DNA of 64,000 nucleotides. Origin: Myxococcales bacterium. Its GTDB lineage: Bacteria; Myxococcota_A; Polyangia; Polyangiales; DASUME01. The notes beneath the pieces are model-generated. The model was not told the DNA's origin, ran no database searches, and saw only the letters and a program-made list of their open reading frames with translations. Within the stretch, counting starts at the first letter, position 1; each line of letters opens with the position of its first letter. Position numbers and translations under genes: made by a program. The DNA lies in assembly GCA_047601445.1 (NCBI GenBank), contig JASGJH010000001.1:1664001-1728000 (forward strand), read 5' to 3'. Positions 6,982 through 48,413 of this stretch are shown here, piece after piece.

Positions 6982-8054
6982 GTGTCCAAACTCCCCTACT
7001 CCATCCTCGCCAAGCTCCTCCTCGCTGTGGCCTTCCACGCTTTCGTCATGGGCGCCGCGGCCGCCTGTGGTCCAGCGGAGACCGAGAATCGTGGTGGTCG
7101 TACAGGCCGAAGCGAGCCTCGTGTCCGAGCTGCAAGCCGTCGAGGCCGAAACCGACCACGAGCGCAGCGTGGTCGCGCGGGCCCGTACGGGTAAGCCCGT
7201 CCGCTTCCCGCTCTCGTTCACCCTCCGGCAACACAAGAAGCCCGTGACGCGTCTCAGCGTGCGCGCCCTGCGCGGCGATGTGGTGCTCTCCGAGCGCAGC
7301 GCGGACGTACGCTTCGAGTCCGGGCGTCAATTGGCCTGGTACGTCTACCTCAGCGCGCACTGTTCCAGCGGTTGTGCCGGCGAACATAGCTGCGACGCCT
7401 GTGGCGTGTGTGCTCCGAATCCGGCTTGCTCCGCTCGAGCGCGCCCCCAGCGATGACGACATGGCTGCGCCCTTCCCGCCGCCCATGTGCGATTCGAGCG
7501 GCGCGCTCGACGCGGGCGGCGACGCGAGCCAAATGAGCACGCCTTCGGATGACGCTGGCTCCCATCACGTCGGCTCCGATGACGCGGGTCAGGTCAACGT
7601 CACGCCGGACCGCGACGCCGGCTCGGATGCAGCGCAGACGCCGGCTGCGCCCGACGGCAGCGTTCCCCCGGACGGTGGATCGGACGCGCATGTGCCTGAG
7701 GTGATCGATGCCGCGTCGTTCTTCTGGCAATGCGTGAGCGGCCCCTGCGCCTGGGGTACCGAGGGCAACGCCTACGGCGTGGCCTGGCCAGCGGAGCTCC
7801 ACCCCCAAAACGCCCGCATGCTCTACAGCAACTCGGCCCCCATCTATCTCGGCGCGACCGCAGCCGAGGGCATTACCCTGCATGGGGTCGAAGGCAGCGC
7901 CGGCATCTACGCAGGCAGCACGAGCGCGGAATCCCACCGTCCCCTGGGTACCATCGGGCCCGGCATCTCCTTGACCATCACGAACCTGCAGCCCGACGAT
8001 TTGGTCAGCGTGCAGAGCGATTCGCCCTTCAGCTACACGCTCGAGCTGCCGTAG
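6982..8054 (+). CDS. hypothetical lipoprotein, apparently one gene broken by two +1 frameshifts
   Basis: GTG 6982 gives a lipoprotein leader (…VMGAAAAC). Deleting one A from GAATC at 7086-7090 and at 7417-7421 joins three frames into one 357-codon ORF ending at TAG 8054. Confidence 0.65.
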
Positions 8055-8061
8055 ACCGCGT

Positions 8062-8751
8062 CTACGCCGGATTGGTGCGGGCCCCGCGCGATGCCTCGTA
8101 CACCGCGATCGTGCGTTGGCCGCTCTCGACGCCGACCGACCACTTGGCGAGCGACACGCGCCAGCCGTGCTGCTCCATCGCTTCGAGCATGGGCAAGCTC
8201 TGCGCGCGAAACGGGTCGGCGAACAGGGCGGTTCCTGCGGGCGCGAGGTAGCTGTTACAGAGCGCGCGCAACCGGTCGTGCATCGTGGTCACGTACAGCA
8301 CGTCCGCGCCCAAAATGAAGTCGAAGGGCTCGTCGCTGTGAAAGGTCTCCCACTCCGCGATGCGCGCTTCCAGCTGCGCCACGCGGTTGCGCTCGGCATT
8401 CATGGTGCACAGGTGCAGCGCCACCTCACTGCGGTCCACCTGCAGCACCTTGGCGCCGAGGGAGGCGGCGACGACGCCCGGCAATCCGGTGCCGGCCCCC
8501 AGCTCCAACACGCGCTTGCCGCGCAGCTCCTCGGCGCGGGAGACGAGCTCATGGGCCAGCGCAATCGACGAAGGCCACAGCATGGCGCCGTAGGGCAGCC
8601 GCCCTTCTTCGCGGGCCAGGTACTCCTGCTCTTGGTCCATGGTGACGATCAGGCCGGTGTGGAGAAACGACCAGCTGCGCCCGCCGAGCGCGAGGCGATA
8701 CTCGTGGAGGGCAAAGTCACCGACCGATGTGGAAAGCGTGGACGAGGTCAC
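8062..8751 (-). CDS. class I SAM-dependent methyltransferase (Methyltransf_16 / lysine methyltransferase-like)
   Basis: PYGAMLWPSS, VLELGAGTGLPG and ILGADVLY motifs. Confidence 0.88.
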   Translation of the reverse strand: MTSSTLSTSVGDFALHEYRLALGGRSWSFLHTGLIVTMDQEQEYLAREEGRLPYGAMLWPSSIALAHELVSRAEELRGKRVLELGAGTGLPGVVAASLGAKVLQVDRSEVALHLCTMNAERNRVAQLEARIAEWETFHSDEPFDFILGADVLYVTTMHDRLRALCNSYLAPAGTALFADPFRAQSLPMLEAMEQHGWRVSLAKWSVGVESGQRTIAVYEASRGARTNPA

Positions 8752-8835
8752 GCTGCGTTATACACCGCGCGGGGCCCTTCCCTCCGACCCCGTCATCAGG
8801 AACCGCGATTTCTCGCACGGGCAGCGGTGGCGGGT

Positions 8836-9429
8836 TCATGGGCGTAGCGAGACCGAAGCGCTCCCCATCCAACGTTCGTCGATCACCGTCGAGCTCAGCG
8901 CGAACACGCAGGAGTCGGCACCATGCCGCAGGCACTGCGTCTGTTCGATGTTGACGGTGCATCCCATGGCCGCGATGGCCTCGGCGAGGATGCCTTGCTC
9001 CATGCCGCAGTGGTGTGGGGTCGTCTTCTCGAGCACCGCCTGCCCTTGCTCGAACTGCAGCACGCGCCAGCCACCGATGCCCACGCCGCGGTTGGCGAAG
9101 CGATACATACCGTCGATGCCGTACACGATATCGCGCGCCGATCGCGCCACCTCCTTGACGCGTCGCTCGTGGGAGAGCTGGAAGAGCTTGCGCCCCATCT
9201 GCACGAGTCCGTAGTGACCCACGGCACGATCGAGGGTGTCCATCAGCTCGAGCAACCACGCGATGGGATACCAGGCGTTGGCGTCGACGCGCGCGAGCTT
9301 GTCTGCTTCGTCCTTGCCGAGCACCTGCTCCGGCATGCGCAGCACCTTGAGCACCGCGAGAATGTCCGAGCCGATGGTGACGTGATCGACGCCCCGGTAC
9401 CCTCGCGGGCTCTTGCGTGTCGGCCTCAT
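8836..9429 (-). CDS. V4R (4-vinyl reductase)-like domain protein
   Basis: WYP motif and C-terminal HC…GIL…C…G.D.C.F pattern typical of V4R domains. Confidence 0.65.
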   Translation of the reverse strand: MRPTRKSPRGYRGVDHVTIGSDILAVLKVLRMPEQVLGKDEADKLARVDANAWYPIAWLLELMDTLDRAVGHYGLVQMGRKLFQLSHERRVKEVARSARDIVYGIDGMYRFANRGVGIGGWRVLQFEQGQAVLEKTTPHHCGMEQGILAEAIAAMGCTVNIEQTQCLRHGADSCVFALSSTVIDERWMGSASVSLRP

Positions 9430-9609
9430 GGCCGCAGTGTAAGGGGCCCTTGAAGCGCGCCACCAGCGCCGAATCGACCACGCAAAGTCGTGGTCGGCAG
9501 CTGCATTCCAACGCGCGGTGACCGTCCCGGGAGCTTGCGTCCCCTTCGATGGAATCGAGTATTTCTTGCGCCTACGGTCTCCAACGTGGGAGTCGGCTTG
9601 GCCTCTGCC

Positions 9610-9933
9610 TCAATGATGGGCGGCAGCCTGCGCCGCTGCTTGCTGCGACGCCGCCTGCATCGCCACGATGGCCGCGGAAGTGCTCGCCGCCGTGCCCGAT
9701 GCTCCCACCGACGACCCCGCCGTGCGCGGCATCTCGCAGACACAGGCGGAAGCACCGCCGCCGCTACGCCCCTGATCGCCGACGCCCACCATGCCGGTGA
9801 GCTCCATGCCCCAGGCCTTGCACATGGCCAGGCACTGCGGAGGGCCGCCTTGAACCTTCCATGGACTCGGGCACCCAGACAGACTCGCGACCATTCCGAG
9901 CATCCAACACCAACCTGCCAGCGACCGACCCAT
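9610..9933 (-). CDS. small Cys-rich lipoprotein
   Basis: GGAGG RBS before ATG 9933, LSGC lipobox, CxxxC and CxC motifs, Ala/Gln tail. Confidence 0.65.
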   Translation of the reverse strand: MGRSLAGWCWMLGMVASLSGCPSPWKVQGGPPQCLAMCKAWGMELTGMVGVGDQGRSGGGASACVCEMPRTAGSSVGASGTAASTSAAIVAMQAASQQAAAQAAAHH

Positions 9934-10163
9934 ACCCACCTCCGAAGCAAGCGATGCTATCGAAGGCGCGTTTGTCGGCCACTTTCTGCAACATGCGCGA
10001 TCACCCCGACACACAGAGCGAGCCTGGCAGTCGCCCTCAGCGACTTGCCTCCGAGCGATGGCTGCCGCTGTGCGAGCCCCAAAACGCTGAGTCGGAGAGG
10101 GATTCACCCCGAATCCCCTGACGACGGGTTGAACCGACAGGGCTCTAGCGTCACGAACGGCGG

Positions 10164-10712
10164 ATGGTTCGTTGGTTCCTCCTGTTGTTCCCCCTCCTCT
10201 GCTGCACTCTATCGAGCGCGCAGGTCGCCGCGCAGAGCGCGACCTCGGAAGGAGCAGCAGGCGTCGAACCAAGCGCGACCACCACACAGCGTCCCCCTCC
10301 GGGCACCTTCTTGCGTCCCAACGCGCGAGCCAATGGTTCAGCACGCCTGGTGCTCGATGAGCCGATCCACGCGGAGGCCAAGGAACTGCCCCCCCTGTGG
10401 CCCCCGATCGTGCTGATCGCGACGGGAGGCTGTGGCGCAGCCATCGGAGCCAGCATGGTGCTCGTCAACGTGTTCCCGTATGTGGGTCCACACTCCAGCG
10501 ACGAAGTCGATCCCAGCGAGCGCAACGCGGCACTAATTGGCCTCGGCCTTCTCGCCGTGGGCGGCGGCACACTCGTGGGGGGGTTGGTTTGGCTCAAGCA
10601 CCGCTCGCATGAACGGCTCCTGCGCTCACGCATGGTACGGCTCATGGATCCCCAGGCGCCCGCCTCGGTGCGGCTGATGGGTGCGGGCCTACGCGTGCAA
10701 TTCCGGATCTAG
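10164..10712 (+). CDS. hypothetical exported/membrane protein
   Basis: Signal peptide plus two hydrophobic Gly-rich helices and a terminal aromatic strand (GLRVQFRI). Confidence 0.6.
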   Translation: MVRWFLLLFPLLCCTLSSAQVAAQSATSEGAAGVEPSATTTQRPPPGTFLRPNARANGSARLVLDEPIHAEAKELPPLWPPIVLIATGGCGAAIGASMVLVNVFPYVGPHSSDEVDPSERNAALIGLGLLAVGGGTLVGGLVWLKHRSHERLLRSRMVRLMDPQAPASVRLMGAGLRVQFRI

Positions 10713-10870
10713 CCCACGCGCTGGACATCCCTCTCAGCAGCTCGCGCACGGCCCGTCGCAAGCCTTGCGACGCGCTGTGAGGCGTGCTGTCTTTCTCTGT
10801 GGGCACGCCCTCTTCACTCGCGGGAGCGGCCGTGCGACGGCGCCTCGACGCGCTGCTTCGCTCGGGCCGA

Positions 10871-11758
10871 TCAGCGCTTCCGCTGCGCCGTTGGCGAGGT
10901 TGGGCTCGCGTAGCGCGCCGCCATCTCCGACAACATCAAGTAGGCGCCCACGAGAAAGCAGACGGCTCCGACGAGTGTCCACAACGAGGACTCGAATGGA
11001 CTGAGCATGTGCCCGCCCGCAGCGACGTAGGAGCCCACTGCGGAGAGCCCAAACGCGACAGACCCCAACAGATTGATGAAGACGACCCACCAGGAGATGT
11101 TGCCGGGCAGGAGCCGAAACCAGCGGTGACACACTTCGGCAAAGGCCATGTAGCTGGCCACCAGGAAGCACAGCGACCCCACCGCATCGGGCGCCCACAC
11201 CAACACGTCTTCCTCGACGGGGTTCAACGTCCGCATGCCTTCGAAGGTGTTTCGATTGAACAGGAGCGTGCCACAGAACTGGATCAGACATGCCCACCAG
11301 GCGAGCTTGCGCGGCTGAAAGCGCCACCATGCAAACGCCGGGTACCGCTTGGTGACGGGGTCGCGCTCGTTGATGACCTCTCCAAGCTGGAGGTAGGCGG
11401 CGCTCGAGAAGAACAGCGATCCCACGAAGTACGTCGCGGCGCAGTAGGCGCCGGCGTGGGGGCGCGAGAGGTCCACCGCCGAAGCGAGCGCAAAGAGCGC
11501 AGAACCCACCATGAAGAGCACAGCGATCCACCAGCTGAAACTGCGCGGCTCCATGGGTAGCGCCCGCTGCGGCGCGGCACGTGTGGCTTCCTGCTCGGGC
11601 TCCGCATCGAGGCCCTTGCGGTTGCGCCGCGACTCGCGAACGCGGTGCTCTCCACTGGGCTCCTCGACGAGCCACTCGGTCACGAAGGGCCCCGGCCCTC
11701 GCACCCGCAAGAGGGTGTCGGGCGATCCCGCGTGCTCGTCTCGTTCGACCTCGTTCAT
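10871..11758 (-). CDS. multi-pass membrane protein (YrhK-like repeats)
   Basis: About 6 TM segments with repeated F.VGS..F motifs (WWIAVLFMVGSALF; YFVGSLFF; AVGSLCF). Start uncertain. Confidence 0.7.
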   Translation of the reverse strand: MNEVERDEHAGSPDTLLRVRGPGPFVTEWLVEEPSGEHRVRESRRNRKGLDAEPEQEATRAAPQRALPMEPRSFSWWIAVLFMVGSALFALASAVDLSRPHAGAYCAATYFVGSLFFSSAAYLQLGEVINERDPVTKRYPAFAWWRFQPRKLAWWACLIQFCGTLLFNRNTFEGMRTLNPVEEDVLVWAPDAVGSLCFLVASYMAFAEVCHRWFRLLPGNISWWVVFINLLGSVAFGLSAVGSYVAAGGHMLSPFESSLWTLVGAVCFLVGAYLMLSEMAARYASPTSPTAQRKR

Positions 11759-13232
11759 GACTGCGAACTCGGGTGTGCGCACGCGTGTGCTAGGCGCGCG
11801 CCGCAGGGCTCCATTCACGATAGCAGCCTTCGTCGCGCTCTGGAGTGTCGTGCTCCTGTTCGAGTGCAACCCCGCACACGCGTATCCGCCCGAGGAGCCT
11901 CCCCACATGGGACGGCGCGCAAAGGCCAACCCGTGGGCGTACGAGCAAGTCCCGACAATCGCGCCCAGCAGCGCCGATTCGAGCGCGATCCTCCCGCTCG
12001 AGGAAGAGACCATTCCCACCATCATCGGGGACGGCTGGCGCAACGGGCGCGCCGAGGTCGACGACGGTCAAGGCATCCTGGGCAAGCTCTATCCGCACGG
12101 AATCGAATGGCTTGCGGAGCACGGTGTGCAGCTCTTCGGCTGGTACATGATCGCCACGCAGGGCAATCCCGTGGGCGGCCAGGACCGCGCCTTTCGCTAC
12201 ACGGGCCTGTGGGACTTCGGCTTGGACCTCGACATGGGGACCATGGCCAACTTGCACGGCCTCTGGATCCACGTCTCGGGCTCCTGGGCGAGCGGCAAGA
12301 ACCTCAGCACGGACATCGGGACCTTTGCGCCGGTCAACACGGTCTACAGCGGGAAATCGATGCGCTTCTTCGAGGCGTATCTGGAGCAGCGCATGTTCGG
12401 TGACCGCCTCTCGATCCGCGTGGGCAGAGTGTCCGTCGGCTGGGAATACGGCCTCGAGTACGAATACTTCACGCAGTACCTGAGCGGCGTCTTCCGTCTG
12501 AATGTATTCTCACTTGCCGCGGCCACCCCGAACTTCGCCGAAATCCCCTACTCCAACTGGGGCATGCGCGTGCGCTACACCCCCAACCTGCACTGGCGCC
12601 TACAAGCCTCGTTCATGAACGGCTACCCGCAGGACTTCTCCGCCCCCAACAAGCACGGGCTGGACTTCAAGTTTCAGCCGCAAAAGGGCTCCTTCTTCAT
12701 CGTGGAGGGCAGCTATCAATGGGTGCCGTCGGACGAGGAACGCAATCGCAATCCCGGGCGCCTCCCGGGCCGCCTGATCTTGGGTGCCTACTACGACACC
12801 GGGCCCTTCGATCTGGTGAACGGCACGATGGGCACCGACCGCGGCCTCGCCACCGGCTACGCCATCGTGCGCCAAAAGCTCTGGGAACCAGCGCTCGATT
12901 CGAGCAGGGGACTGGTGGGGTGGACCTCAGCCACGGTGAGCGGCAAGCAGAACATCGTCGAGCTGCCGTGGTTCTGGAGCGGCGGCCTGGTCTGGACGGG
13001 TCTCATTCCGCGTCGGCACAAGGACGTCCTCGCGTTCGGCTTCGCCAATGAGTTCTTCAGCAAGGATGTGCCCAACCAGAGCTACGAAATCACGCTCGAG
13101 GCCGCCTATTCGGTCAACGCGACCACCTGGATCACGCTGACGCCGGACTTCCAATACATCGTGAATCCAGGCGGAACCCACACCACCGACAACGCATTCA
13201 TCGCAGGCATGCTCACGTACCTGACGTTCTGA
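11757..13232 (+). CDS. oprB: carbohydrate-selective porin, OprB family
   Basis: GNPVGG, EAYLEQ…LSIRVGR, E.TLEAAY and LTPDFQYIVNPGG motifs with terminal Phe. Start uncertain (11757 or 11775). Confidence 0.85.
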   Translation: MTANSGVRTRVLGARRRAPFTIAAFVALWSVVLLFECNPAHAYPPEEPPHMGRRAKANPWAYEQVPTIAPSSADSSAILPLEEETIPTIIGDGWRNGRAEVDDGQGILGKLYPHGIEWLAEHGVQLFGWYMIATQGNPVGGQDRAFRYTGLWDFGLDLDMGTMANLHGLWIHVSGSWASGKNLSTDIGTFAPVNTVYSGKSMRFFEAYLEQRMFGDRLSIRVGRVSVGWEYGLEYEYFTQYLSGVFRLNVFSLAAATPNFAEIPYSNWGMRVRYTPNLHWRLQASFMNGYPQDFSAPNKHGLDFKFQPQKGSFFIVEGSYQWVPSDEERNRNPGRLPGRLILGAYYDTGPFDLVNGTMGTDRGLATGYAIVRQKLWEPALDSSRGLVGWTSATVSGKQNIVELPWFWSGGLVWTGLIPRRHKDVLAFGFANEFFSKDVPNQSYEITLEAAYSVNATTWITLTPDFQYIVNPGGTHTTDNAFIAGMLTYLTF

Positions 13233-13274
13233 CATCGGAGCTCAGGCGGCTTCGATGGCCGACCACATTCAGCG

Positions 13275-14975
13275 TCAGTGCCCTGCGATGCGGCTCAGAC
13301 AGCGAGCGTGATCGAGGGGACGACCGAGCTCGGCGTAGCGCGCGGCGGCCTCGCTCAAGCCGGCCAGGGCGCGCGCGTCGTTCCCTTGGGCGCGGCGCAG
13401 CACACCGCGAGCTTCCCAGATCGCAGCGACCCAGGGCCCTCCATTCCACATTCCGGCGAGACGCTCGGCTTCATCGAGGCGTCGGCTCACCTGCTCGAGC
13501 TGTCCAGCCTCGGCGAGCGCGATCGCCGACACCGTGCGAAAGCCCATCGAGCACGGCTGGCACAACGTGCCCGCGGAGAGCAGGCCATCGCCCTCCTGGA
13601 TGGCGCGCAGCACGTCCTCCGAGGTCTCGGCGGCCATCACCTCGAGCGCCTTGATGCGGATGCGCAGATGCGGCGCGAGCCAGGTGGTGTTCATGATGGC
13701 AGCGGCCTGGCGGATCAGTTCCCGCGCGGACGCCTTATCGCCGCGAGCCAGGGCCAGCTGCGCGAGCTGCTCCAGCACCAGCACGCTCCCGGCGACGGCA
13801 CCGGTCTCGGCGTGGTGTTGCTCGGCCTCCAACAGCAGCTGCTCCGCTTCCACGAGACGGCCCGCGCAGAGCGCCAGAGCGCCGAGCATGAACTTGGCGA
13901 GACCGCGCCCCGGGATGGAGCCCGCCTGTTCCGCGAGCGCCAGCAACTCACGCGCCGCGGTCACCACCTGGTCGTGGCCATCCGGGCTGGCCATGCAGAA
14001 CTGGGCGAAACAGATGTGGCCGTCGAAGACGTTCGAGGTAAAAGCCGGTGCCGCCCGCACCCACTCCACCACTTCCTCGCGAAACAGCGCGCTCCAGCGT
14101 CCCTGCATGTGCGCAACCATGCCGAGCAGCGCCGTGGCCTCCCCCATCTCCCGCCCAAGCCCCGCGCCCAACGCGAGCTCACGCGTGTCGCGCGCCACGC
14201 GCTCGGCCTTCTCGGGCTCTCCGCTGTGAAGGTGCACGAGCCCCCAGGCGAGCGAGGCGCGAATGCGATCGACGAGGTCCACTGGCTGGAGGGCCGGTGT
14301 TGCCAGTGCGCGGTCATGCAGGGCCACGGCTGCCTTACTCGGTCCGATCCCAAGGTCGACCCGCAAGCGCTCCCGCAGCGCCTGGAACAGACGGATGGCT
14401 TCCCCGCGCCGACCGGCATCGAGGGCGGCTTGCATGAGGGCGCACTGCGCCTGCTCGTCGGTCGGATCGATGGCGATCAACCGCTCCCACAGCTTGCCAG
14501 CCCGCAACACCCGCACATATCGCTGCTGCAATTGCTTGCGCGGCTCTTCGAGCCACTCGACGTAGCGATCGTCCGGTAAGAGCTCTCCGCGGTACAGATC
14601 CGCAGCCCGCTCGCAGGCTGCGGCGTCGGATCCTGCGAGGGCCAGCTTGGCCGCCTCTTCGAACGCCCTCACGTCCACGACGAGCTCGACGTCGGACGCG
14701 AGCGCGATGACTTCACTGGACTCGATCACCTCGTGCTCACCGAGCGTACGCCGCGCGAAGTGCACTGCCTTGCGCAGGTTGGCGCCCGCAGCATCGGGAT
14801 CCAGGTCCGGCCAGAACCGATCCATCACCTGCTCACGGTGCAGTCGGCTTCCCGGGGTCAGGGCCAAGAGCTTCACCAACGCGGCACTGCGCTCACGTCG
14901 CCAGGCCTCGGAGGGGATCACACGATCCTCAATAGTTACGCGGAATTGGCCAAGTAGTTCGATCTGCAGCCGCAT
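13275..14975 (-). CDS. AfsR/SARP-type transcriptional regulator (wHTH + BTAD + TPR-like)
   Basis: MRLQIELLGQFRV…LVKLLAL…WPD…NLRKA, LYRGELLP and LGIGPS motifs. Start refined to ATG 14975. Confidence 0.88.
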   Translation of the reverse strand: MRLQIELLGQFRVTIEDRVIPSEAWRRERSAALVKLLALTPGSRLHREQVMDRFWPDLDPDAAGANLRKAVHFARRTLGEHEVIESSEVIALASDVELVVDVRAFEEAAKLALAGSDAAACERAADLYRGELLPDDRYVEWLEEPRKQLQQRYVRVLRAGKLWERLIAIDPTDEQAQCALMQAALDAGRRGEAIRLFQALRERLRVDLGIGPSKAAVALHDRALATPALQPVDLVDRIRASLAWGLVHLHSGEPEKAERVARDTRELALGAGLGREMGEATALLGMVAHMQGRWSALFREEVVEWVRAAPAFTSNVFDGHICFAQFCMASPDGHDQVVTAARELLALAEQAGSIPGRGLAKFMLGALALCAGRLVEAEQLLLEAEQHHAETGAVAGSVLVLEQLAQLALARGDKASARELIRQAAAIMNTTWLAPHLRIRIKALEVMAAETSEDVLRAIQEGDGLLSAGTLCQPCSMGFRTVSAIALAEAGQLEQVSRRLDEAERLAGMWNGGPWVAAIWEARGVLRRAQGNDARALAGLSEAAARYAELGRPLDHARCLSRIAGH

Positions 14976-14997
14976 GGCGGGTACGAAATTAGCACCC

Positions 14998-21244: not shown

Positions 21245-21320
21245 CGCGTCCCTCGCCATCGACTTGCCAGAACAGGCCTCCTCCAAAAGAATCGGGGCAC
21301 GCATGAGCGTGGGGAGTCCA

Positions 21321-22572
21321 ATGGCACGAGAGGATCGAGAGTTCGACATCGCCTTGTTCGGCGCGACTGGCTTCGTCGGCAAGTTGACGGCGCAATACCT
21401 GGCGAAGACGGCCCCTGCCGGTGCCCGCATCGCGTTGGTGGGACGTTCGCTCGCCAAGCTCGAGGCTACGCGAGCCGAACTCGCATGCCCCGCAAGCTGG
21501 ACCCTGGTTCGTGCCGACTCGCAGAACCTCGAAGACATGCGCGCGCTGGCACGCGACGCCCAGGTCGTGGTCAGCACGGTGGGTCCCTATGCACGCTACG
21601 GGTCGCTCCTCGTCCAGGCCTGCGTGGAGGCAGGAACGGACTACGCCGACCTGACCGGCGAGCCGCTCTGGGTGCGCGACATGATCGAGCAGTGGCACCT
21701 GGCGGCCATCGCCTCGGGCAGTCGCATCGTCAACTCCTGTGGCTACGATTCGAATCCCCTCGGACCTCAGCGTCTACGCGTTGTCCAGGCAAGCAACCGC
21801 CGACCGAACCGGTGCCCTCGAGAGCGCGACGCTCGTGGCCGCCTGGAAGGGAGAAGCCAGCGGCGGCACCATCGACTCCGGGCGCGCCATGTTCGAGGCC
21901 ATCGCTGCCGACAAAGCCCTGCGAGCCGACGTGACGAACCCGTACTTGCTCAGCCAGCAGCCGGAGCTCGAGCCCGATCTCGGCAAGCAATCGGACTCTG
22001 CACTGGGGCGTGCATCGTCGATCGATCCGAGCCTCAAGGGTTGGTACGGCAGCTTCGTCATGGCGACGCACAACACCAAGTTGGTGCGGCGTTCCAACGC
22101 GCTGCTCGGCCATGCCTACGGCAAGAGACTCAAGTATCGAGAGGTGATGAGCGCAGGCAAGTCCGCGCTCTCGCCCGCCATCGCGCTCGCAATGGCAGGC
22201 GGCCTCGCCTGCTTCAATCTCATCGGCCCGAGCCTCACCAAGGGGCTCGGCAAGCGCATCTTCGACGGCCTGGCTCCCAAGCCCGGAGATGGCCCCGACC
22301 AAGCTTCCCGCGACGCCGGCTGGTTCCGCAGCGAGACGTTTGCCCAGACCGAAAGCGGAGCACGCTACAAAGCGACGTGCGCTGCCAAGGGCGACCCAGG
22401 CTACGCAGCCACGGCCGTGATGCTCGGTGAGAGCGCCCTGTGCTTGGCCTTCGACCGTGACCAGCTGAGCACCGTCACCGGCGTCGTCACGCCCGCGGCC
22501 GTGATGGCCGAGCCGCTCGGACGGCGTCTGCGCGCCGCAGGGATGACCCTGCAGGTCGAGCGCCTGCGCTGA
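21321..22572 (+). CDS. saccharopine dehydrogenase-like / trans-acting enoyl reductase, apparent +1 frameshift at ~21753
   Basis: FGATGFVG, VGPY, YADLTGE in one frame; SGGT and GDPGY.AT in the next. Removing one A from GAATC 21752-21756 restores the family motif CGYDSIPSDL. Confidence 0.85.
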
Positions 22573-23047: not shown

Positions 23048-23821
23048 CAAAAGGTACTTCGGCACGATCCATCGCTGACCTGCACGGCGGCACCATCCTC
23101 GCGACCGTGGAGATCGCGGTCCCCCCGGAGCGCGTATTCCGGGCCCTCACCAGCGACGAGGTGACGCTCTGGTGGGGCTCGGACGACACCTACCGCACGA
23201 CCGGCTTCGAGTCGGAGCTGCGCGTCGGCGGACACTGGCGCTCCACCGGCGTAAGCAACGAGGGCAAGGCGTTCTCGGTGGGCGGCACATACCTCGAAAT
23301 CGAATCCGCCACGGCGCCTCGTGCAGACCTGGGAGCCCGATTGGGACGCTGGCAACTCGACTCGGCTCACCTACCTGCTCGACCCCACGCCCGCGGGTAC
23401 GCGCGTCACTGTGCGGCACGAGGGCTTCGCCGGGCGCCCCGACTCTTGCGCGGGCCACGCGGCGGGCTGGGAGCGCGTGCTCGGCTGGCTCACGGGACAT
23501 CTGCGAGCAGCGGAACCGCCGAAGCACTACTTCGTGGTCAAGCTCATCACGCCGCGCCCTTCCTTCATGGCCGACATGGACGCGGAAGAGCGCGCCGCCA
23601 TGATGGCCCACGTCGGGTATTGGACCGAGCTCCTGCGCAGGGGTCACGCCGTAGCGTTCGGCCCGGTCGCCGACCCAGCCGGCCCTTACGGACTGGGCGT
23701 TCTCTGCGCCCGCGACGAGGGCGAACTGGCGGCGCTCCTGGCGAAGGACCCGGCCATCCTCGCCGAGCGCGGCCTACGCCACGAGGTCGCCCCGATGCTG
23801 CAAGCGATGGTCCGCGAGTAG
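23044..23821 (+). CDS. SRPBCC (AHSA1) + YCII domain protein, apparent +1 frameshift at ~23303
   Basis: ATGA overlap with ArsR; PPERVFRALT…WWG. Removing one A from GAATC 23302-23306 gives EIDPPRRLVQTW, then H..GW and a YCII-like AH..YW…FGPV.DP segment. Confidence 0.85.
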
Positions 23822-36541: not shown

Positions 36542-37504
36542 TCAGCTTGGGCGAGTTGCCCTGCTCTGGGACACGTTCACGCTTTCGAGATCGAGGTGGT
36601 CGGAGACTTCGCGCTCGCTAGCCCGACACCGCGCAGCAGCGTGAGTGCCCTCGCTCCCTGCTTTGCAAGCCCGTCCTCCGGACAGAGCGTGCCGGCCGCC
36701 AATGGTCTGCTCCGCGCGGTCGCTGCTTGCTCGATGATCGGGCTTGGGCTGCGATGGAGGAAGGCCGAGCATCATGCGCCAGGGCGTGTTCTCGTAATCC
36801 AGGCCGAGCTGCTCATCGAGCGGGACCAGCTCGGGATCAGTGAAGGTGCCGAACGCGCGATCCCACAGCGTGAACAAGAAGGCGTAGTTGGTATTGGTAA
36901 AGCGGACGTCGGCGCTGTGATGCACGAAGTGCACGCGCGGTGTGACGAATAGCTTCTCCAGCATGCCCTGGTAGGGCAGCCGGATGTTGGAGTGGATCCA
37001 GTGCTGATTGCAGAACTGAAACAGGATCAGCGCGGTCAGCCAGGGCTCACTGGTGGGGGGAAACAAGAGTACGGCGAGGGTGTCTGGTAGCGCGGTGAGC
37101 ACGGCGTGCACGGGCGATGACCGCAGCCCCGCGAGCCACCACACGTGCTTCGAGGAGTGATGAAACGCGTGCGCATGCCAGAGCACGTTCGAATGAAGCG
37201 CGCGATGGGTCCAGTAAACCATGAAGTCGGCGCACACCAGGCTCACGGCGAGCACGAGGAGCGGGGGCCACTCCTCCACCATCGCGTACCAGCGCTCGAC
37301 CGCTGCCAAGGACGTCCACCATTCGGAAAGTGGTCCGCTCACCGCCCGGTCGTATCCGGCTCCCAACAACAGGAAGAGGACCACCGCGATCGCGTCGAGC
37401 CGAATCTCGCGCGGTCCAGACTGCCGGCGAAATGGGATCAGCTTGGACACGAGCTGATGCCCCAGACCGATGGCGAAAAACGCGGCGTGGAAAATAGGTC
37501 CCAT
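36542..37504 (-). CDS. sterol desaturase / fatty acid hydroxylase family protein
   Basis: His boxes HRALH, HAFHH, HSN and HFVHH; NYA..FTLWDR.FGT. Confidence 0.9.
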   Translation of the reverse strand: MGPIFHAAFFAIGLGHQLVSKLIPFRRQSGPREIRLDAIAVVLFLLLGAGYDRAVSGPLSEWWTSLAAVERWYAMVEEWPPLLVLAVSLVCADFMVYWTHRALHSNVLWHAHAFHHSSKHVWWLAGLRSSPVHAVLTALPDTLAVLLFPPTSEPWLTALILFQFCNQHWIHSNIRLPYQGMLEKLFVTPRVHFVHHSADVRFTNTNYAFLFTLWDRAFGTFTDPELVPLDEQLGLDYENTPWRMMLGLPPSQPKPDHRASSDRAEQTIGGRHALSGGRACKAGSEGTHAAARCRASEREVSDHLDLESVNVSQSRATRPS

Positions 37505-37533
37505 GTGCGAGCACTCCGTGGAGACAGCGACTG

Positions 37534-40594: not shown

Positions 40595-42042
40595 CCCAAG
40601 CACGCTTCAACGGTCCCAAGGCAGACAGCCGAGTCGAAGCGGGCGGTTCGGCCCGCGAGCAAGCCTACCAGGCGGTCGCCATTGGCTGCGGCCCATTCAA
40701 CCTGGGACTCGCGGCGCTCGCGTCGACGCTACCCGAACTCGATCTCGTGGCGTTCGAGGCGCAGCCCGAGCTGCGCTGGCACCCGGGGCTGATGTTCGAA
40801 GACGCCACCTTCCAGCTCAGCTTTCTCGCCGATCTCGTCACCCTGGTGGATCCCACCCATCCACTCTCGTTCCTCGCTTACCTGCGCGACGTCGATCGGA
40901 TGTATCCGTTCTTCATCCGCGAGCGCTTCCACCCTACCCGACGCGAGTACGAGGACTACCTGCGTTGGGTGGCCGGAAAGCTGCCCAGCGTTCGCTTCGG
41001 CCACCGCGTGGAGGAGGTGCGCTGGGACCGGAGTCTTTTCCTGTTCGTGGTGCACGTCGTCGGCCCCGCCGGCCGCACGCGCGTGCTGGCAAAAGACCTC
41101 GTCATCGGCATCGGCACCGAGCCGTGCTTGCCCGAAGCGCTCACAGCTCTGCCTCGCAACCGCTGCGTGCATTCAGGGCACTACCTGCACGAACTCCCGC
41201 AGATCACCCGGGCTCGGCATCTCACGGTGGTGGGCTCGGGCCAGTCGGCCGCGGAGTGTGCGCTCGACGCGCTGCGGCGCAACCTCGATGGCGGTGCGCC
41301 CCTGTCATGGATCACGCGCACCCCCGCGTTTGCGCCGCTCGATTACACGAAGCTCGTCCTCGAAATGACCACGCCTGCCTACGTCCGCTACTTCCACGGA
41401 TTGCCGCAGGACACCAAGGACCGCCTCGTACGCGAGCAGTGGCAGCACTACAAAGGGATCTCCGTCGACACCCTCGAAGCCATCCACGACACGCTCTATC
41501 AGCGCGAGCTCAGGACAGGCCTCGAACCTGTGGAGCTACGCAGCGGAGTGGCCGTGGAAGGGGCGCGGCTCGACGGGTCGGGGGACGTGATTCTGCGCTG
41601 TCGCCACCGCGACACCAACACCACATTCGAGCACAGGACGTCTTTGGTGGTGGCGGCCACGGGATACCGTGAGCGCTCGCCGGCCTTCCTCGAACCGCTC
41701 GAGCCCCTGCTGATGCGCGACGACCTGGGCCGCTACCGGGTCCGGCTCGACTACTCGATCGAGCTCGACTCCACCATCACCGGACGCATCTTCGTGGCCA
41801 ACGCCGAGCTGCATACCCACGGCGTCGCCACGCCGGACCTCGGCATGTGCGCGTTCCGCAACGCCACCATCCTCAACACGATCACGGGACGCGAGGTGCA
41901 CCGTCTACCTCGGCGCACAGCCTTCAGCAGCTTCGCCCTGCCCGCGCCCGAGCCGGTGCGTGAGCGAGAGCAAGCCGTGCGGCGCCAGGGTGCCGCCGTG
42001 GTCGGCCACGCCGGGCTCGACTTACCACAGCTGGAGCGTTGA
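40591..42042 (+). CDS. lysine/diamine N-hydroxylase (DesB/IucD/AlcA family)
   Basis: IGCGPFNLGLA, WHPGLM, FLADLVTL.DPT, GSGQSAAE, YKGIS and ATGY motifs. Confidence 0.95.
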   Translation: MTQARFNGPKADSRVEAGGSAREQAYQAVAIGCGPFNLGLAALASTLPELDLVAFEAQPELRWHPGLMFEDATFQLSFLADLVTLVDPTHPLSFLAYLRDVDRMYPFFIRERFHPTRREYEDYLRWVAGKLPSVRFGHRVEEVRWDRSLFLFVVHVVGPAGRTRVLAKDLVIGIGTEPCLPEALTALPRNRCVHSGHYLHELPQITRARHLTVVGSGQSAAECALDALRRNLDGGAPLSWITRTPAFAPLDYTKLVLEMTTPAYVRYFHGLPQDTKDRLVREQWQHYKGISVDTLEAIHDTLYQRELRTGLEPVELRSGVAVEGARLDGSGDVILRCRHRDTNTTFEHRTSLVVAATGYRERSPAFLEPLEPLLMRDDLGRYRVRLDYSIELDSTITGRIFVANAELHTHGVATPDLGMCAFRNATILNTITGREVHRLPRRTAFSSFALPAPEPVREREQAVRRQGAAVVGHAGLDLPQLER

Positions 42043-42896
42043 CCATGACTCAGCAGCATTTCCACGTGGTGATCGTGGGCGCGGGACCCGCAGGCCTCGG
42101 AGCCGGTCTGTTCACAGCGCGCTACGGCCTGCGAACGCTCCTCTTCGATTGCGGCAAGAGCGTGCTCAAGCAGTGCGCCTACCTGGACAACTACCTCGGT
42201 TTTCCCGGCGGCATCGACGCCGACCAGTTCCTGGCATCGGCGCGCGCCCACGTGCTGGAAGCAGGCTGCCAGATCGCGCGCCGACGCGTGGTCTCCGTGC
42301 AGCGGGCGCCGCACGGGCCAGCGCGCTTCGTGGTCACGACGAATACCGGAGAGTGTGCCCTGGCTGATCGCGTGATCGCCGCGAGCGGCTTCGTCGCCCC
42401 TTACTTGCTCGGGCTCGAAGCCCAGTTGGTCGACTCAGAAGGCGAACTGCGGCCGGGCGCGGTAGCGAACCATGGCCGCACCGCGGTGGAGGGACTGTAT
42501 TTGGCGGGCTGTCTCTCGGGCGCCGAGAGCCAGGCGATGATCAGCGCTGGACACGCCGCCCAGGTCGCCCTCGAACTGGTGCGCGACGTGCGCCAAGAGG
42601 GAGGCCTGTGGGAAGCCCTCGCACGCTACCTCGACTGGCAGGTACGGCGGGGCACGTACGACCGTGAAAGCTGGGTCGAACGCGTACGCGCGTACTTCGA
42701 ACCACTGGTGCGCGCCGAGTCCGAGCACGATCGCACTGCCTTCGAGGCACAGCTCGCACGCTGGATCTCGGCCAAGCGCGCCCAGCAACTCGACACGAGC
42801 GAGGTCAAGCAACGCAGGGGCCGTGCGCGCGAGCTGCGTGGTGCAGTCTCCCCTCACACCGCAAGCCCGGTACAGACCGGACTGGAGGGATCGTGA
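42039..42896 (+). CDS. truncated thioredoxin-reductase-like FAD-binding protein
   Basis: GAGPAG, NYLGFPGGI and T.VEGLYLAG motifs. No CxxC and no recognisable NADPH domain. Confidence 0.75.
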   Translation: MTMTQQHFHVVIVGAGPAGLGAGLFTARYGLRTLLFDCGKSVLKQCAYLDNYLGFPGGIDADQFLASARAHVLEAGCQIARRRVVSVQRAPHGPARFVVTTNTGECALADRVIAASGFVAPYLLGLEAQLVDSEGELRPGAVANHGRTAVEGLYLAGCLSGAESQAMISAGHAAQVALELVRDVRQEGGLWEALARYLDWQVRRGTYDRESWVERVRAYFEPLVRAESEHDRTAFEAQLARWISAKRAQQLDTSEVKQRRGRARELRGAVSPHTASPVQTGLEGS

Positions 42897-44125
42897 CCCT
42901 CAAGCTTTTTCTGCTGCTCATGACGGCCATCGCGGTGGTGTGCGACTCGATGCTGCACCCCTTCTATCCCCAGTACTTCGCCAGCGTGTTCGGCGTGACG
43001 GACGCCCGTCACGTCGGGGCCTACATCGCCAGCTGCAGCCTGACCGTGCTGCTTACGTTCCCGCTCTGGGCGCTGATCGCGAAGCGAGTGAGCGTCCTTC
43101 GGCTCCTGATCGGGACTCAGCTCGGCACCTGCTTGTTGAGCCTCGTCTGCTACGGCACGCGCTCGCTCCTCGCATTCTGGGTCCTCTCCCTGTGCATGAT
43201 GGTGTGCAAGGCCAGCTATCTCCTGATCTATCCGTACGTGATGAGCTTGGAGCCCAAGGAGAACCATGTCAGCACCATCAGCCTGCTCGCGTTCGTGGTG
43301 TACTTCGGGAACATCTTGGCGGCCCTTGCGAGCGGTGCGCTCTTCGAGTTCGTCGACCCGCGCTCGCTGTTCGTTGCCATGGCGGCAGGCGACGCGCTTC
43401 AAATCGCCCTGTGCTGCTTCATGTTGCGTGCGGCCGAATCGCACCCAGCCCCGTCGTCGAGCAAGGACGAAACCCGGATCCCGACGCGCTACTTGCTGAA
43501 GCTCGGGCTCGTGATGTTCGTGCTCTACTTCAGCGCCTACATCAGCGAGCCTTTTTTTGCACAGTTCTGGGAGACGGTCGCTGCCCTCGACAACAAGTTC
43601 GTGGCCGGCAGTGTGTTCGCCATCCCGGGTGCGGCCGCACTGCTCGGGCTCTTCTTGAACGCTTCCGCAAGCGACGAGGAGGCCACCCCCTACTCCGGAA
43701 TCGCGCCCGCCATCGCGCTCGGAGTGGCCTCGCTGGCGATGCAAGCGAGTGGGCTTCCGCTCGCCGTGGTGGCCGGGCGCTTCCTGTACGGTTGGGCACT
43801 CTTCCAATCGATGGTGCGGCTCGATGGACTGCTATTCCGCTACAGCACCCCCGAGACCTACGCCGTCGATTTCAGCCAAGCCAACCTCTTTCAAGGGCTC
43901 GGCGTCCTGGTCGCCTCGAGCTGTGCAGGTTCGCTCGTCGAGGCCTTCGGGGTGCGGTTGCCCTTTGGCGTGGCCGCCCTCGGTTTCGTGATCGGCGGCC
44001 TCTTGTACCTGAGCCTCTTTCGCTCGGAGCTGCGCGGAGGCGCAGAGGCCTCGCTCGACTCGCGGGCAGAACCGCCCGCTTCGACTTCTCAGGTGACCGT
44101 CGACGAAGGGAGCAGTGCAGCGTGA
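42893..44125 (+). CDS. MFS transporter (candidate siderophore exporter)
   Basis: About 12 hydrophobic segments; GTGA-coupled at both ends within the operon. Confidence 0.85.
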   Translation: MTLKLFLLLMTAIAVVCDSMLHPFYPQYFASVFGVTDARHVGAYIASCSLTVLLTFPLWALIAKRVSVLRLLIGTQLGTCLLSLVCYGTRSLLAFWVLSLCMMVCKASYLLIYPYVMSLEPKENHVSTISLLAFVVYFGNILAALASGALFEFVDPRSLFVAMAAGDALQIALCCFMLRAAESHPAPSSSKDETRIPTRYLLKLGLVMFVLYFSAYISEPFFAQFWETVAALDNKFVAGSVFAIPGAAALLGLFLNASASDEEATPYSGIAPAIALGVASLAMQASGLPLAVVAGRFLYGWALFQSMVRLDGLLFRYSTPETYAVDFSQANLFQGLGVLVASSCAGSLVEAFGVRLPFGVAALGFVIGGLLYLSLFRSELRGGAEASLDSRAEPPASTSQVTVDEGSSAA

Positions 44126-46011
44126 AGACCGAACCTTTGTCCCCACTCCAAGTGACCGAACACCTCGAGCCCGAGGTGTGGTCCAAGGTCAATCGGCTAG
44201 TCATCGCCAAGGCGATCAGCGAGTTCGCTCACGAGCTGCTGATCGCGCCGCTCCTGGTGCGGATGGAAGGAGACTGGGGGCACTACGTGCTCACCACGGA
44301 CCAGCCCGACGTGGAGTATCGCTTCCGCGCCCGCGTCCTGAGCCTCGATCACTGGTGGATCGACAAGCTGTCTTTGAAGAAGGTCCAGCGCGGCTCCGCC
44401 GCCTCCCTCGACGCCCTCTGGTTCATGGTCGAGCTCCGAACCATGCTCGGGCTCTCGGACGCAGTGCTCCCTGAGTATCTCGAAGAGCTCGCCTGCACGC
44501 TCTATGGAGCCGCCCACAAGCACGCACGACCGGGGCCGAGCGCCGCCGTCCTGTGCCGCGGAACGTTCCAGGAGATCGAGACCGCCATGCTCGAAGGCCA
44601 CCCCATCTTCGTGGCCAACAACGCTCGCCTCGGCTTCAACGCTCGAGACTACCCTGCCTACGCGCCAGAGCTGGGGAAACCCATCTCGCTGACCTGGCTT
44701 GCGGTGCGCAAGGAGCTGCTCGCCTTCTCCTGTGTCGATGCGAGCGATTCTGCCCGTGCGCAAGACCCGCACCGCCTCGACTACACCGAGCTCATGGAGC
44801 AGGAGCTGGACCCGAAGACGCGGGACGCCTTCCACGGTGTGCTCGCTGCGCGCGGACTCGACACCGTGGACTATCGCCTGATGCCCGTCCACCCCTGGCA
44901 ATGGACCGATTGCGTCGCCCAGCTCTTCGCGGCCGACCTGGCGCGCGCCGACCTCGTCTACCTGGGTTCAGGCAGCGATCACTACCTCGCGCAGCAGTCG
45001 ATCCGCACACTCTACAACATCAGCCAGCCGCACAAGCGCTACGTAAAGACCTCGCTAAACATCCTGAACATGGGATTCACGCGCGGCATTCCGGCCTCCA
45101 TCGTGCGGGGCGCGGGCGTCAACGAGTGGGTCGAAGAGTTGGTGCGCGGGGATCCCTACCTCCATGCCCACGGCTTCCGCGTGATCCGCGAAGTGGCTTT
45201 CATGGCCTACCGCCACCGTCACTACGAGCGCGTCGTCAGTGAGCGCTCCTCCACTTACAAGGAGATGATGGGGGCCGTCTTCCGCGAGAACCCGGCGCGC
45301 CATCTCGCGACGGGTCAACGCTTGATGACGATGGCCGCGCTCATGTACATCGATCGCGACGGTGCGGCCCTGCTCCCGGCGCTGATCGAGGCCTCCGGAC
45401 TCGGCGTCGCCGAATGGCTGCGCCGCTACCTGCGCTGCTACCTGAAGCCCCTCCTGCACTGTTTCTACCAGCATCACCTGACGTTCTCTCCACACTGTGA
45501 AAACGTCATCCTGGTCCTCGAGCACCACGCGCCCGTGCGCCTCATCATCAAGGACCTCGCCGAAGACATCGGCGTGCTCAACCCGGACTTCGAACTTCCA
45601 CCGAAGGTACGAGGGCTCGCGCTCAAGGTTCCAGAGGATGTCATGACGCTCTCGATCTTCACGGATGCGTTCGACTGCGTGTTCCGCTTCCTGGCCCAGA
45701 TTCTCCTCGAACACGAGAACTTCTCCAACGAGGCCTTCTGGAGCGTCGTGGCGGCCTCCATCCACGAATACCAGTCGGAGCACCCTCACCTCGCCGAGAA
45801 GTTCCGCCGCTACGACCTCTTTGCCCCCACCTTCCTCCGCAACTGCCTCAATCGCCTGCAGCTCACCAACAACCGGATGATGGTCGACCTCAACGCACCC
45901 GAGCCGGTGGACAGCCTGCAGTTCGTTGGCACCCTGCTGAACCCGATCACTCACTTGAAAACGCGACGGGCCCTCCCCGTTCGAGCCGGAGAGACCCACG
46001 ATGCACTCTGA
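44122..46011 (+). CDS. IucA/IucC family NIS siderophore synthetase (DesD/AlcC-like)
   Basis: GTG 44122. KAISEFAHE, EGHP.FVAN..R.GF, PVHPWQW, AQQSIRT, YVK…LNMGF.RG and CLNRLQL motifs. Confidence 0.93.
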   Translation: MKTEPLSPLQVTEHLEPEVWSKVNRLVIAKAISEFAHELLIAPLLVRMEGDWGHYVLTTDQPDVEYRFRARVLSLDHWWIDKLSLKKVQRGSAASLDALWFMVELRTMLGLSDAVLPEYLEELACTLYGAAHKHARPGPSAAVLCRGTFQEIETAMLEGHPIFVANNARLGFNARDYPAYAPELGKPISLTWLAVRKELLAFSCVDASDSARAQDPHRLDYTELMEQELDPKTRDAFHGVLAARGLDTVDYRLMPVHPWQWTDCVAQLFAADLARADLVYLGSGSDHYLAQQSIRTLYNISQPHKRYVKTSLNILNMGFTRGIPASIVRGAGVNEWVEELVRGDPYLHAHGFRVIREVAFMAYRHRHYERVVSERSSTYKEMMGAVFRENPARHLATGQRLMTMAALMYIDRDGAALLPALIEASGLGVAEWLRRYLRCYLKPLLHCFYQHHLTFSPHCENVILVLEHHAPVRLIIKDLAEDIGVLNPDFELPPKVRGLALKVPEDVMTLSIFTDAFDCVFRFLAQILLEHENFSNEAFWSVVAASIHEYQSEHPHLAEKFRRYDLFAPTFLRNCLNRLQLTNNRMMVDLNAPEPVDSLQFVGTLLNPITHLKTRRALPVRAGETHDAL

Positions 46012-48413
46012 ACCCCTGGTCGCGCCAAAAGGCGAGTCCGCCGCGCTGACGGGCGGCGTCGTATTCGCCCAGCACCATCCTGTTTTCGGACCCGTGCAGA
46101 TTCGGCGCATGCGCAATCCGGAGGACATTCCGACGGTTCACGCCTGGGTTGGCCGAGAGTACGCGCGCTTCTGGGGCATGGTCGGGTACTCGTCCGAGCA
46201 GGTGGCCGCCGGCTATCGCGAGATCGCTCGCAACGCAGACGTCTTCCTCGGCTTTCAGGGGGACACGCCCATTTTCCTCATCGAATCCTACGACCCAAGA
46301 CGCGACCCCGTCGGGGGTCACTACGAGGTGCTGCCGGGCGACCGCGGCATGCACGTATTGATGGCTCCACCTGACCGACGCGTGAAGGGCTTCAGCTGGG
46401 CGGTCTTCTCGCTCGTGATGGACTTTCTTTTCGCCGATCCCGGCACGAAGCGCATCGTGGTGGAGCCGGACATCCGCAATCGCCGTATCCACGCGCTCAA
46501 CCGGCGCGCAGGCTTCCGCTACCAGAAGATGATCGAGCTTGGAAGCAAGACCGCCCACTTGGCATTCTGCACGCGCGCTCACTATCTGGAAGCCCTGGCA
46601 ACGCGAGAGGATACCCGGCTCGCCTACCCGCGCGCGCCTACGGCTCCCCATGGGCACGTCCAGCCAGAAGCCTGGCAGGCCGCCAACCGCGCACTGATCT
46701 GCAAGGCGATCTCCGAGTTTGCACACGAGGCGTTGCTCGAGCCCGTGCGAGTCGCCGAGGACGGACCGTGGGGGGTCTACGTACTGGAAGACTCCGAGCA
46801 TACCGTCAGCTATCGCTTTCGCGCACGCATGCTCGCCCTCGACCACTGGTGGATTCGAGCGTAGTTCGCTCGAGAAGCGCGCGGAACACGCCCCCAGCGA
46901 ACTCGACGCGCTCGCGTTCTTCGTGGAGTTCAACCTGCAGCTCGGCATGACCTCCGCGTTGCTACCGGTGTACTTGCAGGAGATCTCCGCCACGCTCTAT
47001 GCAGCGGCCTACAAGCACGAGCGCCAGGTGTTGAGCGCGGCCGACCTGGTCCACGCGGACTTCCAGGAGATCGAGACGTCCATGGCAGAGGGGCACCCAT
47101 GCTTCGTCGCCAACAGCGGACGCGTCGGCTTCGACGCCGATGACTACATCGCCTTTGCACCGGAAGCGGGCACCGATATCCGCATCGTTTGGCTCGCCGC
47201 CCACCGGCAGCACACGCAGTTCACCTCATCGTCCGATCTTTCCTATGAACGGCTCCTCCTGGAGGAGCTCGGTCCGGACACGCTGGCCGACTTCGCGCAG
47301 CGCCTCACGGGCCTGGGCCTCGTGGCCAGCGACTACGTCTATGTGCCGGTTCACCCTTGGCAGTGGTTCAACAAGCTGGTGTTCTTGTTCGCCACCGACC
47401 TGGCCAAGCGCGACCTCGTGTGCCTCGGCTACGGTGAGGATCGCTATCGGGCCCAGCAGTCCATCCGCACCCTGTTCAACCTGAGCCACCCCCGGAAGCG
47501 CTACGTCAAGATGGCGCTGTCGGTGCTCAACATGGGGTTCATGCGCGGATTGTCGGCCGACTACATGCGGGCCACGCCGGCGATCAACGACTGGGTTCAT
47601 CAGGTCGTCGAGAACGATCCTTGTTTCGCCGAGCTCGGCTTTGGCATCCTGCGCGAAGAAGCTGCCGTGGGCTACCGCAGTCCGCTGCTGCAAGCGGCCG
47701 TGCCCAGCGCGAGCCCATACCGCAAGATGCTCGCTGCGCTTTGGCGGGAGAGTCCGACGCAGCTGCTCGGCCCGGGCCGTCGGCTGATGACGATGGCCGC
47801 GCTCCTGCATCGCGATCGCGACGGGCGGGCGCTCTTGCCCCAGCTCATCAAGGCGTCCGGAGTGGACGTCGACGCGTGGCTCGCAGCGTACCTACGCTGC
47901 TATCTCGCGCCGCTACTTCACTGCCTGTACCGCTACGAGCTCGCCTTCATGCCGCACGGAGAAAACATCATTCTGCTGCTGGAGGAGAACCTGCCCATCA
48001 AGGCTCTGCTGAAGGACATCGCGGAGGAGGCCGTCGTGATGGACCCGGAAGCTGAGCTTCCCCCCGAGGTCGCGCGGCTGCGCGCTCCGGTTCCCGAGGA
48101 CGTGAAGGTGCTGTCCATCTTCACGGACGTATTCGACTGCTTCTTTCGCTACCTCGTTCAGATCCTGCTCGAGGAGGCGGGCTACCCCGAGGATCGCTTC
48201 TGGGAACGCGTGGCGGACTGCATCCGCGTCTACCAGGCAAGCCATCCCGAGCTCGCCGCGAAGTTCCAGCGCTACGACGTATTCGCAGCCACGTTCCAGC
48301 GGTCGTGCTTGAACCGTCTTCAACTGCGCAACAATCGCCAGCTGATCGATCTGACCGACCCTGCCAAGAACCTGCAGTTCGTGGGCACGCTGGCAAACCC
48401 AGTCGCGAGCTAA
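46001..48413 (+). CDS. acyltransferase (AlcB/DesC) fused to an IucA/IucC synthetase (DfoC-like), apparent +1 frameshift at ~46854
   Basis: YARFWGM, GDRGMH and VVEPD.RN GNAT motifs, then KAISEFAHE. Removing one T from GATTC 46852-46856 gives LDHWWIERSSLEK (paralog: LDHWWIDKLSLKK) and joins the 46719-48413 frame with HPWQW and PHGEN. Confidence 0.9.

Follow-up and report, generated by a model that had tools for sequence, protein, structure and literature searches.

Errors in long-read assemblies of native bacterial DNA are known to gather at methylated motifs. In R10.4.1 data, error-prone G sites were wrong in reads of one strand, while reads of the opposite strand gave the correct base. In two species the leading motif was GATC, where strand-specific G-to-A miscalls have been published (PMC11610603). 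A preprint names A-to-G and G-to-A as the dominant nanopore substitutions and reports that they rise near methylated motifs (bioRxiv 10.64898/2026.01.14.699587). According to a benchmark, errors arise only at particular copies of a methylated motif (PMC12392509). Here we describe a related signature in the genome of a presumably uncultured Myxococcales bacterium of the order Polyangiales (GCA_047601445.1, hereafter G000). The window, that is the whole stretch of 64,000 nucleotides that was analysed, spans positions 1,664,001-1,728,000 of its single 9.50 Mb contig (66% G+C). A preliminary description of this window had reported five extra bases, GATC written as GAATC or GATTC, that split four genes. 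Like the methylation-linked errors of Oxford Nanopore data, those of G000 pile up at a presumably methylated motif, GATC included, strike only some of its copies, involve confusion of A and G and leave the motif readable. Unlike the published errors, they are +1 insertions in which a purine appears as GA, and the motif was read from the frameshifts of a finished record.

Another system to which G000 can be compared is the Dam/MutH/SeqA set of gammaproteobacteria. MutH cuts unmethylated GATC, and SeqA is a companion of the dam clade. Polyangiales resemble this set (1azo and 2aoq for MutH) in having a stand-alone MutH beside a conserved Dam-like gene. They differ from it in that no SeqA was found in 31 genomes and in a MutL that keeps its nuclease motifs in G000 and in 6 of the 8 MutH-bearing genomes examined.

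One-base insertions at GATC across the genome

Frameshifts were called by a 7-state hidden Markov model (HMM) that is blind to motifs and uses a codon model trained on the genome's own long frames. It gave 624 calls genome-wide, 436 of +1 and 188 of -1, and recovered 282 of 400 simulated insertions. Of the 436 +1 calls, 198 had a GAATC or GATTC word no more than 20 nt away, where random coding positions would give 15.1. When each word was given its own frameshift score, 193 of 9,936 GAATC/GATTC words exceeded the threshold of 6 as +1 (26.5 by chance; 185 after neighbours were merged), and the control words GACTC (34/16,224) and GAAAC (21/9,101) stayed at background. The systematic consensus error at GATC that had been proposed from the window alone is supported by this enrichment, and the suggested tabulation of frameshift contexts over the whole genome is clearly enriched for GATC. 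From the recovery of the detector we estimate a total near 300 insertions, or about 0.5% of the 55,119 GATC sites. Whole-genome k-mer ratios to expectation (GAATC 0.93, CGAATCC 1.10) show nothing because the errors are too few relative to real GAATC words.

The base preceding GAATC in 207 calls was A in 159, C in 36, G in 10 and T in 2. The main error class is AGATC written as AGAATC, and the CGATCC written as CGAATCC that makes up most of the window's sites is a minor one (15 sites). The window is thus unrepresentative of the genome, and the earlier choice of CGATCC as the motif has to be given up. Both CGATCC and RGATCY were rejected, since errors are as frequent at AGATCG and AGATCA as they are at AGATCC, and there are hardly any at GGATCC. 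Two further classes are in excess, GAGATC (67/9,626, 25.7 expected) and GAAATT (16/1,014, 2.7 expected), while GACGGA was not accepted as a third motif (20/4,173 vs 11.1). Alignments to a genome of the same genus, G007, fix the forms as xAGATC to xGAGATC, GAATT to GAAATT and, in one case, CAATT to CGAATT. A common rule fits all four forms: the two letters 'GA' take the place of a purine that lies one or two nucleotides upstream of the presumed methyl-adenine.

The motif is used about equally in its two orientations (102 plus, 105 minus), whatever the strand of the gene. A leading or lagging strand bias of the errors was sought genome-wide and none was found, and the insertions overall follow a Poisson distribution along the genome. 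The AGAATC rate is independent of codon position (0.68-0.96% in four well-filled classes), which argues against real polymorphism. It varies about 70-fold with the two upstream bases, from 2.7% at TCAGATC to 0.04% at GGAGATC, as expected of an error that depends on signal context. Given this variation and the benchmark cited above (PMC12392509), the low hit rate does not imply that the modification is partial.

Comparison with relatives separates error from mutation. We aligned 120 loci of G007, which is about 80% identical and was sampled over 1.65 of its 6.4 Mb, to G000. Isolated one-base insertions fell in GAATC/GATTC in 25 of 90 cases in G000 and in 0 of 61 in G007, and G007 has plain GATC at 16 of those 25 sites. 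Inside coding frames, G000 carries 33 insertions: 24 of the GAATC type, 4 of the GAGATC type and 5 others, the last including one more GAGATC-type site and three AATT sites. The part covered by G007 holds about 30 hits among 6,579 coding GATC sites (0.46%), in agreement with the genome-wide estimate. The genes broken in G000 include orthologs of G007 valS, tsaD, uvrA, yidC and ccmF. For valS (G000:257573), tsaD (G000:3286102), yidC (G000:7989572) and ccmF, tblastn shows just one locus per gene in G000, with alignments that break off or switch frame where the extra base stands. Because G007 confirms the extra base at 25 sites, and because the essential single-copy genes valS, tsaD and yidC are broken, the insertions are read as assembly errors; that they are an artefact is almost certain.

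The signature recurs in at least one other assembly. In G021, which belongs to another family, has long contigs and carries the same methyltransferase, 18 of 196 words scored as +1, about 12 separate events, against 1.8 expected (197 kb sampled). G007 is without it (3/1,121 words, 1.2 expected). In the G021 sample (L071-L080) the insertion rate is higher than in G000, and one Dam-like match and MutL appear split.

Five sites and four split genes in the window

All five GAATC/GATTC words of the preliminary description are present at the positions given below. The HMM made +1 calls at four of the five (7417, 21752, 23302 and 46852). Among the 98 GAATC/GATTC words of the window, only six score above 0, and these are the five sites and one neighbour of 21752. 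A fifth HMM call, at 36702, was dropped (score 1.95, in a gene tail). The claim that four sites share the context CGATCC after strand normalisation stands. Its second part, CGATCT at 7086, does not, since that site reads AGAATCG and CGATCT needs the opposite strand convention.

Two of the sites lie in a myxobacterial lipoprotein-like gene of no known family (6980..8054, plus strand, start approximate), which is in three frame pieces. It has no Pfam or NCBIfam match, and its last piece gave no usable Atlas match. The first break (7086..7090, plus strand) is AGATC read as AGAATC and belongs to the main genome-wide class. Its score of 4.8 is below the threshold, and the shortness of the upstream piece kept the HMM from calling it. 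An intact paralog in the same genome (G000:~8290600) joins the two frames, with the N-terminus ACGETSEGPTELLVVV against ACGPAETE|IVVVV. The second break (7417..7421, plus strand) is CGATCC read as CGAATCC; the support for this site is its codon score, 9.0, with no exact homolog spanning the junction.

The error at 21752..21756 (plus strand, CGATCC read as CGAATCC, score 12.7) splits a saccharopine-dehydrogenase-like oxidoreductase gene (21303..22572, plus strand, PF03435), and the frame switches relative to the homolog in G022. At 23302..23306 (plus strand, CGATCC read as CGAATCC, score 11.8), a gene with AHSA1/SRPBCC and YCII domains (23107..23821, plus strand) is broken within AHSA1, so that positions 2-58 of PF08327 lie in one frame and 64-122 in the next. 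The last error, GGATCG read as GGATTCG (46852..46856, CGAATCC on the minus strand), has the highest score of the five, 17.0. It divides an acetyltransferase fused to an IucA/IucC siderophore synthetase (46001..48413, plus strand), with PF13523 in the first frame and PF04183 and PF06276 in the second. Here the tblastx alignment to the paralog is continuous apart from exactly one extra base, whereas tblastx with the pieces at 7086, 7417 and 23302 returned mostly low-complexity noise. The three motifs that had been reported as restored on removal of the extra base are supported by CGFDSIPHD/CGFDSIPSD homologs at 21752, by the paralog motif DHWWIDKLSL at 46852 and by the split AHSA1 domain at 23302. 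The view that the four genes are intact and broken in the record only is supported.

The stretch 42664-48413 is a siderophore cluster with two IucA/IucC paralogs, the second of which is fused to the acetyltransferase once the error at 46852 is discounted. An Rfam search of the window gave no match. Close DNA relatives of its genes were sought in 31 genomes, and only weak paralog matches were found.

Methyltransferases and the probable origin of the errors

The cause had been predicted to be encoded elsewhere in the genome, and the suggested search for a GATC methyltransferase did find a Dam/DpnM-family gene. It is intact and orphan, lies at G000:593316-594443, and matches TIGR00571 at 290.9 bits (cut-off 114.85) and PF02086 at 3e-63, with a DPPY motif. 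The best solved relative of its product is DpnM (PDB 2dpm; E 9e-67, full-length). The GATC-reading residues K9, N120, L122, R124, P134 and Y138 of EcoDam (roles as given in PMC4417163; numbering counted by hand on the printed alignment) are identical in the G000 enzyme, and Y119 is F as in DpnM. The G000 enzyme thus resembles DpnM and E. coli Dam in its full-length match, DPPY motif and aligned GATC-reading residues, and resembles Dam in being an orphan. It differs from E. coli Dam in being closer to DpnM, and with 188 vs 441 it does not reach the cut-off of NF008152, the equivalog of E. coli type. A further difference is its setting, next to folB-like and mlaF-like genes. The gene is present in 29 of the 31 genomes, in none of which a DpnII-type nuclease was found, and the closest named records of its product come from Polyangiales, Sandaracinaceae and other Myxococcota.

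The methyltransferase matches of G000 comprise two of the D12 class and up to three of the N6/N4 class; no C5 methyltransferase and no type I M subunit were found in this genome. One of the matches is a beta-class enzyme (G000:8797639-8798496, L016:1282-2271), present in 25 of the 31 genomes, whose best solved relative is M.RsrI (E 1e-26). The target of M.RsrI is GAATTC. The AATT class probably marks a second N6-methyladenine (m6A) motif, and judged by this resemblance the beta-class enzyme is perhaps its source, as a candidate and no more. The second D12-class adenine methyltransferase (G000:553916-554638, L015:1492-2553) is far from Dam, and no error motif is tied to it. Elsewhere a NurA-domain gene stands beside a methyltransferase fragment (L017:56-2579, G000:C1:~173600-176200) where codon use is atypical, and may belong to a defence island. 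MutH is encoded as well (see below), and its presence favours m6A at GATC. The modification is very likely m6A placed by the Dam-like enzyme.

We consider it likely that the extra bases entered the consensus as errors when native, GATC-methylated DNA was assembled from long reads; the platform was probably nanopore. The Dam-like enzyme would methylate almost every GATC to Gm6ATC. Depending on the context, and most of all at AGATC, the purine one or two nucleotides before the methyl-adenine would be miscalled as the other purine in reads of one strand and given correctly in reads of the opposite strand. With half of the reads showing G and half A, a polisher for which a gap is cheaper than a mismatch could retain both, so that 'G or A' would become 'GA'. 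The outcome would be AGATC written as AGAATC or GAGATC, CGATCY written as CGAATCY, and the AATT class by the same rule. We give the step in which both calls are kept about an even chance. Such a step would account for the dominance of insertions and for the failure to demonstrate substitution errors. A literature search over titles and abstract openings returned no paper that describes GATC read as GAATC, or this step, there; error tables broken down by motif, if present in supplements, may bear on how new the insertion signature is.

Several observations weigh against this account. Words with the two purines in reverse order, 'AG' (AGGATC, AAGATC, CAGATC and GAGTC), are hardly if at all in excess, which the step in which both calls are kept can explain only with a tie-breaking assumption. 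Published errors are mostly substitutions, whereas insertions dominate here and substitution errors were not demonstrated: G-to-A before ATC stood at 238 vs 82 (controls 0.55-2.1 fold), a codon-aware count gave 4 vs 1 (control 1 vs 1), and 0 of 39 in-frame stop candidates were at TGA-ATC. The -1 calls near GAATC/GATTC are also slightly in excess (16/188, 6.5 expected). G022 combines a Dam-like gene with long contigs and has no signature (0/156 words in 197 kb). Finally, the window's own class is regional, which this explanation does not predict. Sites of the main class are spread evenly over the chromosome (KS p 0.86) and the other calls have no gradient, but 14 of the 15 CGAATCC sites fall between 0.33 and 3.56 Mb (p 6e-5, post hoc among four classes), four of them inside the window (permutation p 4e-4). 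The wider S-GAATC-Y class is also regional (p 4e-4, post hoc), and the AATT class leans likewise, less clearly (11/16 at 0.5-4 Mb). Since dnaA lies at 5.77 Mb and the skew peaks at 1.12 Mb, the region of about 0.3-3.9 Mb is origin-distal. Coverage, strand ratio or a second strain are candidate causes of the regional class.

It is extremely improbable that genuine mutations or programmed frameshifting account for the insertions. Direct exclusion would take sequencing reads, but single-copy valS, tsaD and yidC would then be dead, the five broken genes that were tested are otherwise 70-94% identical to their intact G007 orthologs, and the balanced orientation and independence of gene strand are unlike a ribosomal slippage signal. 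A mixture of two co-assembled strains, with G/A polymorphisms at GATC and a consensus that retains both alleles, is hardly more probable. The contamination estimate of 5.43% would fit it, as would the regional CGAATCC class if a second strain covered part of the chromosome. Real polymorphisms are however expected at synonymous positions and in all motifs, whereas the rate is flat by codon position and depends on the upstream bases, and the same signature occurs in G021.

The same artefact could come from another modification, namely Dnd/Ssp phosphorothioation at the G-A step of GATC or a further non-methyl or non-m6A type (7-deazaguanine, m5C, m4C, an unidentified hypermodification). Dnd phosphorothioation shares with the G000 signature its target, GATC, and the G-A step, where the commonest extra base falls; the hit rate of about 0.5% and a signature dominated by insertions, unlike the published substitution signature, also speak for such a modification. 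It is nevertheless distinctly improbable. No dnd or ssp gene was found: dndC, dndD, DGQHR, SspD-like and dpdA (NF041059) profiles had no match in G000, and neither had dndE, for which the search was weak (the control gave no match anywhere). The preliminary description's suggestion of Dnd is accordingly not followed. The sole PAPS-reductase protein of G000 resembles CysD, and, as said, no C5 methyltransferase was found either. These negatives come from a one-contig genome with a completeness of 98.68%. Moreover, the GAGATC and AATT classes lie off the G-A step of GATC, and a GATC-type m6A enzyme and MutH are present. Both PF01702 matches score like tRNA enzymes, and G000 has two full-length tRNA-guanine transglycosylase genes (G000:666758 and 4727004). 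PacBio rather than nanopore sequencing is improbable as well, if less so. PacBio polymerase pauses opposite m6A, and extra pulses might survive into the consensus. The insertion-only bias agrees with this, as does the scarcity of homopolymer deletions (17 -1 calls close to runs of at least 5), and on the complementary strand the main error amounts to one additional T opposite adenine. GAGATC and CGAATT, however, are not duplications of a neighbouring base, and all forms are A/G ambiguities, a documented weakness of nanopore reads.

Dam, MutH and MutL in Polyangiales

The MutH of G000 is a stand-alone protein of 221 aa (G000:C1:4784468-4784752, L265:1345-2010) with a full-length match to E. coli MutH (E 1.6e-49). 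Aligned to 1azo and 2aoq, it has D-x6-E-x-K and a tyrosine, which we take to be the catalytic motif and the methyl-sensing residue. It falls just under the NCBIfam cut-offs (233.7 vs 243; 194.2 vs 229.9). MutH is present in one copy in 24 of the 31 genomes, and the conserved Dam-like gene occurs in the same genomes. Among 151 genomes drawn from the phylum, MutH was found in 63 and a Dam-like match at E ≤ 1e-60 in 67. One can occur without the other: in family f30, MutH is present in 10 of 13 genomes and a close Dam match (E ≤ 1e-60) in 0 of 13, for which a more distant GATC methyltransferase or another role of MutH are candidate explanations. SeqA was found in 0 of the 31 genomes, and its control matched in E. 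coli. Database-named MutH homologs come from Minicystis and Sorangium.

The MutL of G000 keeps the nuclease motifs DQHAADERIHYD and CPHGRP. Of 15 MutL proteins, 12 keep DQHA and CPHGRP, including those of G000 and five more MutH-bearing genomes. The DQHA motif is lost in G012 and G023, both of which have MutH, and a contig end truncates one MutL. Most of the proteins, whether or not MutH accompanies them, have a change at the final glutamate of the textbook MutL motif. Membership in the E. coli type thus fails on MutL, but the system may still work like that of E. coli. Tentatively, and with somewhat less than even confidence, we propose that Polyangiales methylate GATC by a lineage-conserved orphan Dam-type enzyme that serves a genuine MutH, with the error footprint as an indirect sign of this methylation in vivo. 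This would be methyl-directed repair without SeqA and with a nuclease-motif MutL, intermediate between MutL-nicking and MutH-nicking, with a complete hand-over in lineages such as G012 and G023. Among the titles and abstract openings covered by the literature search, none concerned the pair of MutH and Dam in myxobacteria, although a review of how methyl-directed repair evolved may treat it.

The artefact itself is no new biology, and motif-linked consensus errors are established. What is new is the rule by which a purine is written as GA, the genome-wide rate, the recurrence in G021 and the inventory of Dam, MutH and MutL. In a species-representative genome, about 300 genes, some of them essential, could be mistaken for pseudogenes, and the fault is shared by at least one further assembly of the order (G021). 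The rule that the purine before m6A is written as GA lets such sites be flagged easily. The occurrence of Dam and MutH together with a nuclease-motif MutL in Polyangiales bears on the origin of methyl-directed repair, and this is testable in cultured Sorangium and Minicystis.

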